From the IMG/VR virus record IMGVR_UViG_3300032893_000006, positions 70,338 to 134,337 of that record: 64,000 bases of DNA; one strand, given 5' to 3'. The number at the start of each line of letters is the position of its first letter. Positions within the stretch are counted from its first letter, which is position 1. A program made the translations under genes and the position numbers. This document shows positions 40,551-59,196 of the stretch, one piece after another. The DNA is from a virus. Below the pieces are notes generated by a model that made no database searches, was not told where the DNA came from, and saw nothing but the letters and a program-made list of their open reading frames with translations.

Positions 40551-40790
40551 ATGATCGAGATGATGAAGGACGACTTTATTGCGCCGGAGCACATTGCTCG
40601 CGTGAAAAAGATCGACGACGACACCTGCAACGTGTGGCTTGTCGGTCAGAGCGCTCTTGAACCGCACGTCGTGAACTGCAGCGCCAGAGATTTCGCCAAT
40701 GCAGTAAATGACGAGCTTAAATTGCCCCGGTGCGAAGAAGGGGATCAATCGGTCTCCGGCGACGAAAACTCAGATGAAGAAAGTTCTTGA
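40551..40790 (+). CDS. Small acidic hypothetical protein
   Basis: 79-aa ORF; its stop codon overlaps the -35 of the tRNA cluster 1 promoter. Confidence 0.45.
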   Translation: MIEMMKDDFIAPEHIARVKKIDDDTCNVWLVGQSALEPHVVNCSARDFANAVNDELKLPRCEEGDQSVSGDENSDEESS

Positions 40791-40815
40791 CAGGTATTTG
40801 CGACCGTGAGAGCAT
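40787..40815 (+). promoter_or_regulatory. Sigma70-type promoter of tRNA cluster 1
   Basis: TTGACA-N17-GAGCAT (weak -10). Confidence 0.55.
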
Positions 40816-40825
40816 GAAAAACGTT

Positions 40826-40906
40826 ATGAAGCTTTGCTTGTCCAGTTCGCGACTCTATTCCTCATTACTGAGGATGGGCTCGCCTTTTCTGGATCGCGGG
40901 ATATAA
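40826..40906 (+). CDS. Attenuator leader peptide 1 (MKLCLSSSRLYSSLLRMGSPFLDRGI; alternative start 40814)
   Basis: Codons CTT TGC TTG TCC AGT TCG CGA CTC TAT TCC TCA TTA CTG match the downstream Leu/Cys/Ser/Tyr tRNAs. Confidence 0.85.
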   Translation: MKLCLSSSRLYSSLLRMGSPFLDRGI

Positions 40907-40929
40907 GCTTCAGCGAATTTCAGAAAGAT

Positions 40930-40967
40930 GAGCCCTCAGACGCCAAGCGACTGGGGGCTTTTAGTTT
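40930..40967 (+). terminator. Attenuator terminator 1
   Basis: AGCCCTCAG/CTGGGGGCT stem plus T-rich tail; 5' arm also complementary to CTGAG-gat-GGGCTC at 40868..40881. Confidence 0.8.
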
Positions 40968-41050
40968 GCGGGATTGGCGGAATTGGAAGACGCAGTGGAC
41001 TTAAAATCCATCGGGCAACCGTAGGGGTTCAAGTCCCCTATCCCGCACCA
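40968..41050 (+). tRNA. trnL: tRNA-Leu(TAA)
   Basis: Cloverleaf; loop CTTAAAA; variable arm; encoded CCA. Confidence 0.95.
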
Positions 41051-41051
41051 T

Positions 41052-41127
41052 GTACCGGTACCCAAGTGGCTAAGGGAGCGGTCCGCAAAACCGTTATTCG
41101 CGAGTTCGATTCTCGCCCGGTACTCCA
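41052..41127 (+). tRNA. trnC: tRNA-Cys(GCA), C33
   Basis: Loop CCGCAAA; U73; CCA. Confidence 0.92.
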
Positions 41128-41138
41128 AGATTAGTTTT

Positions 41139-41221
41139 GCCCGGATGGTGGAATTGGCAGACACACTATCTTGAGGGGGTAGCGCGCAAGCGTGCCGGTT
41201 CAAGTCCGGCTCCGGGCACCA
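41139..41221 (+). tRNA. trnL: tRNA-Leu(GAG)
   Basis: Loop TTGAGGG; CCA. Confidence 0.95.
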
Positions 41222-41226
41222 AAGTT

Positions 41227-41326
41227 GTACGGAAGTGGCGAAACTGGCAGACGCGCACGCGTGTGCTCTGCGGTGTGCTAGGCACACTTAAAGAGCGTGA
41301 AGGTTCGAGTCCTTCCTTCTGTACAG
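41227..41326 (+). ncRNA. Leu-type tRNA-like RNA with aberrant anticodon region
   Basis: Acceptor ACGGAAG/CTTCTGT, Leu-like D arm, intact T arm; no 7-nt anticodon loop; no CCA. Confidence 0.7.
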
Positions 41327-41332
41327 CAATGT

Positions 41333-41415
41333 GGGGACGTGGCGGAATTGGCAGACGCGCTACGTTCAGGGCGTAGTGAGAAATCGTGAGGGTTCGATTC
41401 CCTCCGTCCCCACCA
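41333..41415 (+). tRNA. trnL: tRNA-Leu(CAG)
   Basis: Loop TTCAGGG; CCA. Confidence 0.95.
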
Positions 41416-41432
41416 AGTTGAAGTTGAGTAGT

Positions 41433-41517
41433 GGCTCCGTGGCGGAATTGGAAGACGCGTTGGCCTTAGGCACCAATGCCCACGGGCGTAAGGGTTCGAG
41501 TCCCTTCGGGGCCACCA
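41433..41517 (+). tRNA. trnL: tRNA-Leu(TAG)
   Basis: Loop CTTAGGC; CCA. Confidence 0.92.
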
Positions 41518-41558
41518 AAGTTTGAATAAAAATTATGCGTAATCAGCATGATTTTTAT

Positions 41559-41641
41559 GCCGTCGTGGTGGAATTGGAATACACAGCGCACTCAAAACGC
41601 GCCGCGAAAGCATAGGGGTTCGAGCCCCCTCGACGGCACCA
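41559..41641 (+). tRNA. trnL: tRNA-Leu(CAA)
   Basis: Loop CTCAAAA; CCA. Confidence 0.93.
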
Positions 41642-56966: not shown

Positions 56967-56969
56967 GTT

Positions 56970-57365
56970 ATGAACACACACGAACGAGGCACGGCCAGTG
57001 AAAGCGCTGTAATCACGTATCTTCTGAATAAAGGGCACGCTGTTTCGATACCGCTCGGCTCTAGAAGATACGACCTCATCGTTGACGATGAGCTAGGGCT
57101 TCACAGGGTTCAAGTAAAGACGGGTAGGATCGTTGATGGTTGCGTGAGATTTAACGCATGTTCGGTGGATGGTACAGCTAAACCAGCCAAGAAACGCTAC
57201 TACACGAGGGATGAAGTCGATATGTTTGTGGTTTTCTGTCCGCAGAATGGAAAGTTTTACCGCGTTTTTTTGGAGGATGGTAGGACAGATTACTCGCTGA
57301 GAATTTCCCCGGCGAAGAATGGAATGAAGAAGGGCATTCGGAATGCTGTAGACTATGAATTTTAA
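56970..57365 (+). CDS. PD-(D/E)XK homing-type endonuclease (I-Ssp6803I-like)
   Basis: RGTASE...YDLIVD...RVQVKT...YTRDEVDMFVVFCP. Confidence 0.85.
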   Translation: MNTHERGTASESAVITYLLNKGHAVSIPLGSRRYDLIVDDELGLHRVQVKTGRIVDGCVRFNACSVDGTAKPAKKRYYTRDEVDMFVVFCPQNGKFYRVFLEDGRTDYSLRISPAKNGMKKGIRNAVDYEF

Positions 57366-57370
57366 GTTTT

Positions 57371-57447
57371 GCGCGAATAGCTCAGGCGGATAGAGCGGAA
57401 GTTTCCGAAGCTTCAGGCCGCAGGTTCGAATCCTGCTTCGCGCACCA
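57371..57447 (+). tRNA. trnR: tRNA-Arg(CCG)
   Basis: Loop TTCCGAA; CCA. Confidence 0.95.
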
Positions 57448-57461
57448 GATAGGAGGCGACG

Positions 57462-57686
57462 TTGAAGCGGTGGACGTCCGAAGTTGTTGATCGCGGCACG
57501 CACAGAGTGATGGGAAAGAGATTTCACCTTATGAGCCGCGTGGCTGTTCGGGAAGATGGAGCCAAGACACTTTTCGTTGCAAAGGGTCGCAATCCTCAGG
57601 AGTGTCTTGCTGTGCTTAACACGTTTGTCTGGCCCGAGTGTGAATGTTGGCAAGGCCAACCGCCATGCAGAATGCATCAAGCATAG
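57462..57686 (+). CDS. Small hypothetical protein
   Basis: AGGAGG RBS; TTG start; fits between tRNAs. Confidence 0.55.
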   Translation: MKRWTSEVVDRGTHRVMGKRFHLMSRVAVREDGAKTLFVAKGRNPQECLAVLNTFVWPECECWQGQPPCRMHQA

Positions 57687-57692
57687 AGTTTT

Positions 57693-57768
57693 GCGGAGTT
57701 AGATCAGCGGCTAGATCGTCTGCCTTACAAGCAGGTCGTCGGGGGTTCGAGTCCCTCCCTCCGCACCA
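57693..57768 (+). tRNA. trnV: tRNA-Val(TAC)
   Basis: Loop CTTACAA; CCA. Confidence 0.95.
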
Positions 57769-57774
57769 AGTTTT

Positions 57775-57848
57775 GTCGATGTAGCTCAGTGGCAGAGCCG
57801 TCGCATGGTAAGCGACAGACTCGGGTTCGATTCCCGACATCGGCTCCA
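57775..57848 (+). tRNA. trnT: tRNA-Thr(GGT)
   Basis: Loop ATGGTAA; CCA. Confidence 0.94.
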
Positions 57849-57849
57849 T

Positions 57850-57923
57850 GTACCTGTCGTCCAACGGTAGGACGCACGCCCGATTAGCGTGTCATCGCGG
57901 TTCAAATCCGTGCAGGTACACCA
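57850..57923 (+). tRNA. trnI: tRNA-Ile(GAT), C33, atypical body
   Basis: Loop CCGATTA; A73; CCA. Confidence 0.82.
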
Positions 57924-57973
57924 TATTCTAAGTAATCATGCTATGCTCTATCGACAGGTTACATGGAGCATAA

Positions 57974-58546
57974 ATGCCGAATTGCAAATTATGCGCTGAG
58001 TATTTTCCAGTTCAAGAAACAGTGGATGGGAAAAAATTCCGGTACCACTCTCGCAAGTATTGCTTTACATGTTCTCCTCGGGGCCAACGCAACACGCATA
58101 AACTTGAACGCGATTTAGTAACGGGTAAAATTGTAAAGCTTCGTCCGAACTACTTCAGTGGACCCCGAACACGGCTAGTGGCGATTGGTGCTGCAGTCGA
58201 GTGTCGCGAGTGTGGAAGAAGCTATTACTATAATCCTAACGCGGGGCACCAAACGGAGATTTGCAATTCGTGTAATGCAAACCGTAAACGCGTAACGGTC
58301 AAGAAGAAGTGCGTTGAATACAAGGGGGGTGAGTGCGAACGCTGCGGTTACTCCAAGTGCTTACGAGCCCTTGAGTTTCATCACAGAGAACCAAAAAAGA
58401 AAGAGTTTTCCATTGGCACAAAAATGTCTTGGTCGTGGTCGCGACTACGGAAAGAACTCGATAAATGTCGCCTGTTGTGCAGCAATTGTCATTGTGAGGT
58501 GCACGAAGAAGAAGATAGAGCGCGTAAATTTGGAAGGAATTCCTGA
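57974..58546 (+). CDS. Zn-finger HNH endonuclease (paralogue of 50821..51411)
   Basis: CERCGY...LEFHHREP...CRLLCSNCHCEVH. Confidence 0.88.
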   Translation: MPNCKLCAEYFPVQETVDGKKFRYHSRKYCFTCSPRGQRNTHKLERDLVTGKIVKLRPNYFSGPRTRLVAIGAAVECRECGRSYYYNPNAGHQTEICNSCNANRKRVTVKKKCVEYKGGECERCGYSKCLRALEFHHREPKKKEFSIGTKMSWSWSRLRKELDKCRLLCSNCHCEVHEEEDRARKFGRNS

Positions 58547-58587
58547 TAAGGGTGAGGTCGACAGTTCAATCCTGTCCACGCCAACCA
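58543..58587 (+). pseudogene. 3' half of a tRNA-Ile(GAT)
   Basis: CTGATAA-GGGTG-AGGTC-GACAG-TTCAATC-CTGTC-CACGCCA-A-CCA; no 5' half found. Confidence 0.8.
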
Positions 58588-58650
58588 AAGTTTAGTAACC
58601 GTTACGAACGATTTCGTGACTACGCCAAAAAGTTCTGGCAGAATTTCCGG

Positions 58651-59115
58651 ATGAAAAAGAATCTGTTGTACATGAAGTATCTTGCTCGACACAAGTGGTT
58701 CGTCTTGGTTGCCGGGTTGAAGTTCAAGGTTCCGCTGCTGAGGTTGATCTTTCACGACTGGTCGAAGCTGATGCCGGTCGAGTGGGTGGCTTACAGAGAG
58801 TTCTTCTACGGCGAGCGAACAGATGAAGTGAAGGAAGCATTCAAGCGCGCTTGGGCTCATCACATTCACCTGAATCCTCACCACTGGAACCACTGGATGT
58901 ACACCGACGAGGATGGCACCAAGACGCTGCAGATGCCAGAGACCTACGTCAGAGAGATGCTGGCAGACTGGTACGGAGCCGGTCGAGCAATCCGAGGAAC
59001 GTGGAGCGCCGATTGGTGGTACGAAAAGAACAAGGAAACGATTCTCCTGCACCCGACGACCCGGCTCTGGGTCGAGGCCGATCTTCAAAGGGCGCAACGG
59101 GAATTTAAGTGGTAA
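58651..59115 (+). CDS. DUF5662-like His-rich (HD-related) protein
   Basis: RHK...HDWSKL...HHIHLNPHHW...EMLADW. Confidence 0.78.
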   Translation: MKKNLLYMKYLARHKWFVLVAGLKFKVPLLRLIFHDWSKLMPVEWVAYREFFYGERTDEVKEAFKRAWAHHIHLNPHHWNHWMYTDEDGTKTLQMPETYVREMLADWYGAGRAIRGTWSADWWYEKNKETILLHPTTRLWVEADLQRAQREFKW

Positions 59116-59118
59116 TGA

Positions 59119-59196
59119 GCGACCGTAGCCAAGTCCGGTAAGGCACGAGGCTTCCACCCTCGCATTGCGTGAGTTCAAATCTCACCGGTCGCTCCA
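59119..59196 (+). tRNA. trnG: tRNA-Gly(TCC)
   Basis: Loop CTTCCAC; U73; CCA. Confidence 0.94.

Follow-up and report, generated by a model that had tools for sequence, protein, structure and literature searches.

The 64-kb stretch of DNA analysed here (the window) is the right-hand part of the 134,337-bp IMG/VR virus record IMGVR_UViG_3300032893_000006 and has a G+C content of 52.6%. Its source is an uncultured 134-kb wetland phage, and near-identical DNA was confined to wetland metagenomes when sequencing runs were searched for window DNA. ARAGORN placed all 39 transfer RNA (tRNA) genes and a permuted transfer-messenger RNA (tmRNA) gene on the plus strand, and Rfam confirmed them. We found that the tRNA genes are grouped in four transcription units. 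Three of these are preceded by a leader, with a short open reading frame (ORF), and a terminator, and one is not. The three leaders, which we consider as candidate leader-peptide attenuators of the tRNA clusters behind them, are the subject of this report.

Leader units, their codons and their pairings

At three sites the original prediction had described a promoter, an ATG, a short ORF, a terminator and a tRNA cluster, and a check of the coordinates found this layout in place at each of them (Table 1). We compared the leaders with those of 10 related metagenomic or viral loci, in which 17 leaders could be defined. Locus L001, an IMG/VR contig, was reached via a vWA domain protein that is 76% identical to the one in the window; a second contig (L003/L004) was reached via an exact 24-mer of leader 3, and eight further loci came from a metagenome scan with a 20-mer of the leader 3 core. 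All 17 leaders have an open frame, a terminator-like hairpin downstream (with a U-tract in all but one) and a cluster of the same type behind it.

The codons of each leader match the cluster that follows. Within the window, 56-74% of the leader codons are decoded by the leader's own cluster and 4-26% by the other clusters, whose tRNAs decode just 1-6 codons per leader; among the homologues the ranges are 45-75% and 5-25%. Compared with random ORFs generated from the phage codon usage, the own-cluster match has a P value of about 1e-3 to 2e-5 per leader. As a control for small ORFs, we listed the start-to-stop combinations that are 18-35 codons long across all six frames of the complete genome, 2,974 in total. 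For its own cluster, each leader ranked first among them, barring a shorter in-frame start inside leader 2. The match was lost in the +1 and +2 frames, and it was frame-specific in all of the 14 leaders tested.

These results agree with the earlier claim that leader codons favour their own cluster. The coverage that had been claimed along with it (10/11, 13/14 and 11/12 tRNAs for leaders 1, 2 and 3) was recounted under standard wobble rules, which gave the counts in Table 1, and was lower under strict Watson-Crick pairing (8/11, 10/14 and 9/10). The prediction was to be given up if there was no enrichment over controls or if the ORFs were unconserved; enrichment was found, and the 17 leaders are conserved.

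What is conserved differs between the leaders. Homologues of leader 1, with ORFs rich in Leu, Ser, Cys and Tyr, were found in four relatives (L001, L004, L007 and L012), and compositional homologues of leader 2 in three (L004, L007 and L012). Both peptides retain their palette of amino acids (L, S, C and Y in leader 1; N, Q, G, T, H, A, F, P and R in leader 2) and do not retain its order. BLAST detected no similarity between leader 2 of the window and leader 2 of L004, yet both mirror cluster 2. This pattern is as expected if codon content, rather than peptide structure, is selected. In leader 3, a 20-nucleotide (nt) core is shared without change by all the other loci found, an identity that the search itself required, and the adjacent codons are nearly identical. 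This conservation fits a constraint imposed jointly by an internal hairpin and by the identity of the codons. Locus L001 is without leader 2 and without most of cluster 2, and the promoter there leads to a protein gene.

In the window, the leader ATG lies 9-10 nt past the -10 hexamer and 2-4 nt from the expected transcript start, without a Shine-Dalgarno (SD) sequence; leader 1 has a further ATG in the same frame (40814), which overlaps its -10 hexamer. A generic promoter scan did not pick up the three leader promoters. Support for them comes from -35 and -10 elements and a spacing that are conserved in relatives. The pattern of leader 1 (-35, 17 nt, -10, then a start codon 6-7 nt on) is kept in four relatives, and most homologues have an ATG or GTG start 6-7 nt past the -10 hexamer.

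The fourth unit offers a calibration of the transcript start. Its promoter (44921-49, TTGCAC-17-TACATT) is of the same type, and tRNA-Met (5' CGCGG) begins 6 nt downstream, without a leader; this junction recurs in L001 and L007. The earlier claim that attenuators gate all three tRNA clusters leaves out the Met-Asp-tmRNA-Glu unit. The mature 5' end of this tRNA-Met, 6 nt past the -10 hexamer, matches the distance to the start codon in the homologues and so calibrates the start site. Because the start codons sit at this distance, the leader mRNAs are predicted to be leaderless or nearly so, with the transcript beginning on the start codon or no more than about 4 nt away from it. In four related leader 3 loci (L005, L007, L009 and L010), an SD-like AAGGA or AGGA precedes the ATG.

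The terminator hairpins are GC-rich, with folding energies of -18 to -22 kcal/mol. The gap between terminator and first tRNA has no room for a promoter, so transcription of the clusters, or of their first genes at the least, could by this layout come only from read-through of the terminators.

The window leaders fold well below shuffled sequences, with z scores of their minimum free energy of -4.1, -5.0 and -5.4 for leaders 1, 2 and 3. In each minimum-free-energy structure, the 5' part of the ORF (segment 1) pairs with the region of the stop codon (segment 2), and a separate terminator (3:4) forms. Segment 2 can also pair with the 5' arm of the terminator (2:3). For leader 1, the duplex of segment 2 with 40925-40940 has an energy of -16.8 kcal/mol; for leader 2, the 2:3 duplex reaches -20.1 kcal/mol (P 0.008); for leader 3, segment 2 has compensatory variants among the homologues. 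Segment 2 overlaps the stop codon or sits within about 25 nt of it in 15 of the 17 leaders. The 2:3 test with the strict terminator arm was underpowered, and the final test took 7 extra nt. In that test, the best 2:3 duplex was more stable than in shuffled sequences in 17/17 leaders (z < 0 in each, mean z -1.7).

The MAFFT alignment of the leader 3 homologues was ragged 3' of the ORF, and per-sequence duplex tests and swap tests replaced column-wise covariation. In the swap tests, cognate pairs were compared with pairs exchanged between homologues. For 2:3, cognate pairs were more stable than non-cognate ones, with permutations as good in 4/120 cases for leader 1, 1/24 for leader 2 and 7/20000 for leader 3; for 1:2, the figures were 3/120, 1/24 and 154/20000. 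The test is informative because terminator sequences vary between homologues. The antiterminator-competent segment named in the original prediction is thus seconded by 2:3 and 1:2 pairings that co-vary across homologues. With these predicted pairings, the layout is the classical 1:2 / 2:3 / 3:4 design of an attenuator.

Table 1. Positions of the leader units, the unit without a leader, and comparable phage loci
Feature	Position	Strand	Details
Leader 1 promoter	40787..40815	+	-35 TTGACA 40787-92; 17-nt spacer; -10 GAGCAT 40810-15
Leader ORF 1, 26 amino acids (MKLCLSSSRLYSSLL...)	40826..40906	+	14/25 codons decoded by cluster 1; 11/11 tRNAs covered
Leader 1 segment 2, CTGAGG-AT-GGGCTC	40868..40881	+	predicted to pair with ORF codons 8-13, or with terminator 5' arm GAGCCCTCAG
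Terminator 1 (GAGCCCTCAG ... CTGGGGGCT), U-tract TTTTAGTTT	hairpin 40930-40959, U-tract 40959-67	+	0 nt to tRNA-Leu 40968
tRNA cluster 1	40968..42486	+	Leu x5, Cys, Ser x4, Tyr (ARAGORN, Rfam)
Unit without leader	44921..46562	+	promoter, initiator-like tRNA-Met (44956), tRNA-Asp, permuted tmRNA 45557-45972, probable tRNA-Glu(ctc) 46490-46562 (ARAGORN, Rfam)
Leader 2 promoter	48220..48249	+	-35 TTGACA 48220-25; 18-nt spacer; -10 TACTGT 48244-49
Leader ORF 2, 24 amino acids (MRLNRANSNHPAQTVATPFQGGRM)	48259..48333	+	17/23 codons decoded by cluster 2; 13/14 tRNAs covered
Leader 2 segment 1, CCGAGCC	48270-76	+	within ORF codons 5-6
Leader 2 segment 2, GGCTCGG	48333..48339	+	overlaps stop codon; complements CCGAGCC of codons 5-6 and the identical CCGAGCC of the terminator arm
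Terminator 2 (GGTCCGAGCC ... GGTTCGGACC), U-tract TTTTGTTTTG	hairpin 48379-48402, U-tract to 48412	+	9 nt to tRNA-Asn 48422
tRNA cluster 2	48422..52239	+	Asn, Gln x2, Gly-gcc, Thr x3, His, Ala x2, Phe, Pro x3, Arg-acg; HNH genes and others inserted (ARAGORN)
Leader 3 promoter	55639..55667	+	-35 TTGCAA 55639-44; 17-nt spacer; -10 TAACGT 55662-67
Leader ORF 3, 22 amino acids (MTQTFKHGITRMTKRVIWGIVC)	55678..55746	+	14/21 codons decoded by cluster 3; 10/10 tRNAs covered
Leader 3 segment 1, CAGACCTT	55684-91	+	within ORF
Leader 3 segment 2, GGGGTCTG	55746..55753	+	overlaps stop codon; predicted to pair with segment 1, or (GGGGTC) with GACCCC of terminator 5' arm
Terminator 3 (GACCCCGGC TCAG GCCGGGGTT) and U-tract	hairpin 55778-55799, to 55810	+	10 nt to tRNA-Trp 55821
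tRNA cluster 3	55821..59196	+	Trp, Met, (Ile-tat), Lys x2, Arg-tct, Arg-ccg, Val, Thr-ggt, Ile-gat, Gly-tcc (ARAGORN)
phiCbK-type loci, CcrMagneto (JX100812.1)	L013:20575-20790, L013:18810-19050
phiCbK-type locus, CcrRogue	L015:2470-2670

Proposed mechanism and other explanations

Taken together, these observations suggest, with a probability that we put at about 0.75, that three leader-peptide attenuators each control read-through from a sigma70-type, constitutive-looking promoter into one tRNA cluster. The structural part of this proposal, one ribosome-mediated attenuator per cluster keyed to that cluster, is supported by the codon match, by ORFs that are conserved and frame-specific, by terminators that lie right against the tRNAs and by the co-varying pairings. 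From the sequence we infer that the leader ORFs are translated and that stalling within them affects read-through. The phage probably makes a block of tRNAs only upon slow decoding of the matching codons.

The transcript would start at or near the start codon, and a ribosome would load at once and translate the ORF of 22-26 codons. With fast decoding, the ribosome at the end of the ORF would mask the G-rich segment 2, or segment 2 would pair again with segment 1; the 3:4 terminator could then form, and transcription would end just before the first tRNA. Were the ribosome to stall at a sensed codon, whichever it is, segment 1 would be held or unwound and segment 2 would pair with the 5' arm of the terminator, and this 2:3 pairing would allow RNA polymerase to continue into the tRNA cluster. 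The tRNAs produced would relieve the slow decoding. Since the product would relieve the stall, each unit could act as a negative-feedback supply regulator for its own tRNA set. As for the physiological trigger and the response of read-through to tRNA supply, we infer a number of candidate causes of stalling: host tRNA cleavage by defence nucleases or decay, tRNA loss after shut-off, the codon demand of the phage, and starvation.

We also modelled the folding around a ribosome. When the full transcript was folded at equilibrium with a stalled ribosome, the terminator always won thermodynamically. In the ribosome-footprint model, the transcript was cut before the 3' arm of the terminator and the footprint was imposed. 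There, the 5' arm of the terminator was 85-97% sequestered as long as the ribosome had not gone beyond three quarters of the ORF, and in most leaders sequestration dropped to about 15-50% with the ribosome at the last codons or the stop. This model is supportive only.

Several observations weigh against attenuation by tRNA supply. The equilibrium model pairs the 5' arm of the terminator even without a ribosome; because it fails to reproduce termination in the absence of translation, this branch of the mechanism rests on kinetic assumptions. Just 6 of the 17 2:3 duplexes reach P < 0.05 individually. When synonymous codons were shuffled with the peptide fixed, isoacceptor coverage was modestly above expectation (summed P 0.003-0.005), and leader 3 was the only leader significant alone. 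Because this extra signal is small, the match lies chiefly at the level of the amino-acid set, with a weaker codon-level layer that is modest; of the codon "checklist" originally claimed, the amino-acid match stands and the codon-level part is reduced accordingly. Matched codons are enriched in the head of the ORF compared with its tail, with significance across the related family only and not in the window alone. The near-invariant nucleotide core of leader 3 might be due to RNA structure or to a peptide with a function of its own, and not to codon sensing. Many homologues would use a GUG start on a predicted leaderless transcript; leaderless GUG starts are efficient in some bacterial groups only. 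Finally, the search of sequencing runs for window DNA returned three wetland DNA metagenomes and no RNA runs.

The modest codon-level signal would suit a sensor that works at the level of amino acids. The same attenuator hardware might respond to amino-acid starvation or charging, or to general translation capacity (for example, ribosomes after host shut-off), and thereby time the expression of the tRNAs. Leader-peptide attenuators such as trp, his and thr do sense charged tRNA, whose supply is a matter of the amino acid and the synthetase as much as of the tRNA itself. We consider this explanation unlikely. Extra tRNA cannot cure amino-acid starvation, so the feedback would stay unclosed, and three sensors that mirror their own clusters are hard to square with a global timer. 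In addition, both members of the isoacceptor pairs CAA/CAG, CCA/CCG, AAA/AAG and AGA/CGG are represented in the leaders.

Alternatively, each leader with its ORF and terminator might be an independent small gene, for a small protein or a small RNA, with a leaky terminator and constitutive read-through to the tRNAs. A strong terminator does follow each ORF, and the peptide core of leader 3 (KHGITRMTKRVIWGIV) is almost invariant, as that of a functional micro-protein might be. We regard this as improbable, since the peptides of leaders 1 and 2 keep their composition and not their sequence or order, which is the signature of selection for codon content. A small gene would also account neither for the way the ORFs mirror the downstream tRNAs nor for the co-variation of segment 2 and the terminator arm.

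T-box leaders gate terminators via the anticodons of tRNAs, and the leaders described here are strongly structured (z -4 to -5.4). One could thus imagine a switch that needs no translation, with tRNAs bound directly to the leader RNA by codon-anticodon pairing at several specifiers. In 17/17 homologues, however, the matched triplets follow one another without gaps in a single frame, from a start at the transcript 5' end to an in-frame stop, as a ribosome would read them and a specifier loop would not. Rfam found no T-box or other cis-regulatory leader family (including the Trp, His, Leu and Thr leaders) at E <= 1 in 40000-60000, and none at gathering score in eight related loci. A switch of this kind is very improbable. 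Small ORFs and terminator-like hairpins are common, and generic scans show neither above shuffled sequence, but a chance coincidence of such elements with tRNA clusters is effectively refuted by the ORF ranking (three leaders, each best of 2,974), by the conservation of the pattern in 10 related loci and by the frame test, and the pattern also occurs in phiCbK-type phages, which may or may not be related to the window phage.

Other features of the window and its relatives

The spacer from the U-tract to the first tRNA of cluster 3 contains a conserved TCTTTGAMA / TGTTTGACA motif (55806-55818). It is also found after the leader 3 terminators of seven relatives (L001, L004, L005, L008, L010, L011 and L012) and after leader 2 in L012. 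The motif is too near the tRNA to be its -35 element and may be a processing signal.

Amid the class-II tRNAs of cluster 1 is an odd 96-nt element (41229-41324) that ARAGORN called tRNA-Ala(tgc). Its anticodon loop is non-canonical, and the Rfam tRNA model gave no match to it. Relaxed ARAGORN thresholds added two tRNAs. One is the tRNA-Glu(ctc) of the unit without a leader, with a partial Rfam tRNA match at 46496-46551. The other is a 93-nt tRNA-Ile(tat) in cluster 3 (56060-56152); the ATA codon of leader 3 is conserved. Both occupy equivalent places in relatives. In L012, the tRNAs of the unit without a leader come directly after cluster 1. At the place where other loci have tRNA-Lys(ttt), L005 (3077-3150) and L007 (12866-12939) have a tRNA whose anticodon, TTA, would recognise the stop codon TAA.

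HNH genes were found within the clusters of the window (49404-49952 and 52555-53121). In L004, an HNH gene (9810-10421) lies between leader 2 and tRNA-Asn. At L001:13436-13898, downstream of the leader 3 terminator, are the 5' half of tRNA-Trp, an HNH-type ORF (13489-13872) and a complete tRNA-Trp, an arrangement that looks like the insertion of a homing endonuclease with target duplication.

Two genes on the minus strand are located between tRNA units. The first (42893-44098) encodes a BCS1-like AAA ATPase and the second (46898-48163) a 421-amino-acid protein with an ARPP-1 domain, for which we found no relatives among viral contigs. The gene at 53147-54652 encodes a 501-amino-acid vWA (CoxE-like) domain protein. 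Upstream of it is a weak Rfam match to the Y RNA-like family YrlA (52036-52114), at 30 bits and below the cut-off. Relatives of the 501-amino-acid protein were found in one viral contig and not in metagenomes, and GenBank phages gave only a 28%-identical protein from an uncultured phage. A nucleotide search of GenBank phages with the cluster 1 region matched tRNAs only. Annotation of nine large proteins with PHROGs gave almost no matches.

Significance and comparison with known systems

The ideas on why phages carry tRNA genes include compensation for codon usage, replacement of degraded host tRNAs and escape from tRNA-cleaving defences. Depletion of tRNAs has been presented as an antiviral strategy that recurs, and one that phages can get round by means of their tRNAs (PMC13462974 and the work cited there, PMC11555353). 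If attenuation by tRNA supply is true, the window would hold the first known case in which the transcription of tRNAs is set by decoding speed at the codons that those tRNAs read, which is a closed loop. Cellular tRNA operons are under stringent or growth-rate control, and the loop would differ from both. Sensing 8-9 amino acids in each leader, it would also exceed all known multivalent attenuators in breadth. Full-text literature searches turned up no account of leader-peptide attenuation of tRNA genes, in line with what the original prediction had said of its novelty.

More tentatively, large phages may have a modular, self-regulating tRNA supply, in which a ribosome-read sensor for each block replaces tRNAs that are limited by the host or by nucleases (anticodon or T-loop) and shuts off when they are restored. 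That this is a widespread, general and so far undescribed principle is a possibility we take seriously without yet favouring it. The occurrence of the same layout in cultured phiCbK-type phages makes the question testable, as Caulobacter crescentus is genetically tractable. As small natural elements, the leaders could also be put to use in reporting how fast particular codons are decoded.

The phiCbK-type phages of Caulobacter, CcrMagneto (JX100812.1) and CcrRogue (JX100814.1), have a comparable layout of TTGACA, 17 nt, TAnnnT, 7 nt, ATG, a short ORF, a strong terminator and a tRNA cluster. As in the window, the ORFs are rich in the amino acids of the downstream tRNAs, but the amino-acid sets and peptides are others, and we saw no sequence similarity of the leaders. 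In CcrMagneto, in a unit at about 50017-50232 of the record, an unannotated leaderless ORF (TTGACA, 17 nt, TAGGGT, 7 nt, ATG; ...YRQFVRQIQVVRNIR...) is followed by a strong terminator and by Phe, Val, Ile, Gln and Arg tRNAs. The gene gp080, whose product is rich in L, S, A, K and P, and its terminator precede Pro, Lys, Leu, Ala and Ser tRNAs. These two ORFs rank 3rd and 1st, respectively, of 266 small ORFs, with a fold z score of -6.0. Across Caulobacter and Brevundimonas phages, 47 records share a conserved CcrMagneto-type element, and CcrRogue has retained the ORF. At these sites the records carry no feature, "terminator" or "hypothetical protein" (gp080). In Xanthomonas phage LucasX, the tRNA groups are too small for a comparison of leader and cluster.

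T-box riboswitches likewise gate terminators by tRNA status and are part of the economy of translation supply. Unlike the window leaders, a T-box reads one uncharged tRNA by RNA-RNA contact without a ribosome, and it controls genes for aminoacyl-tRNA synthetases, biosynthesis or transport. In mycobacteria, leaderless polycysteine short ORFs are described as cysteine-responsive attenuators (bioRxiv 10.1101/834739). According to that description, to which our comparison is confined, they resemble the window leaders in being leaderless, in their place at the 5' end of an operon and in that the speed of codon translation sets downstream expression, and they differ in reading one amino acid and in serving protein-coding operons.

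The enterobacterial leaders thrL (Thr and Ile), ilvL/ivbL (Ile, Leu and Val), trpL, hisL, leuL and pheL have the same short codon-enriched ORF, terminator and mutually exclusive 1:2/2:3/3:4 pairings. They also share the position of segment 2 at the end of the ORF, the use of several amino acids per leader and an overall length of about 120-145 nt. Unlike them, the window leaders are encoded by a phage, target tRNAs rather than biosynthetic enzymes and have an output that would feed the sensor directly. Each one reads 8-9 amino acids (10-14 tRNA species), with one to few codons for each and no long runs, on a transcript predicted to be leaderless or nearly so and without an SD sequence, and shows no sequence or Rfam relationship to the enterobacterial leaders. 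Mechanistically, the multivalent thr and ilv leaders are the nearest to those of the window; the tRNA targets, the breadth of 8-9 amino acids per leader and the predicted leaderless start are new compared with known leaders.

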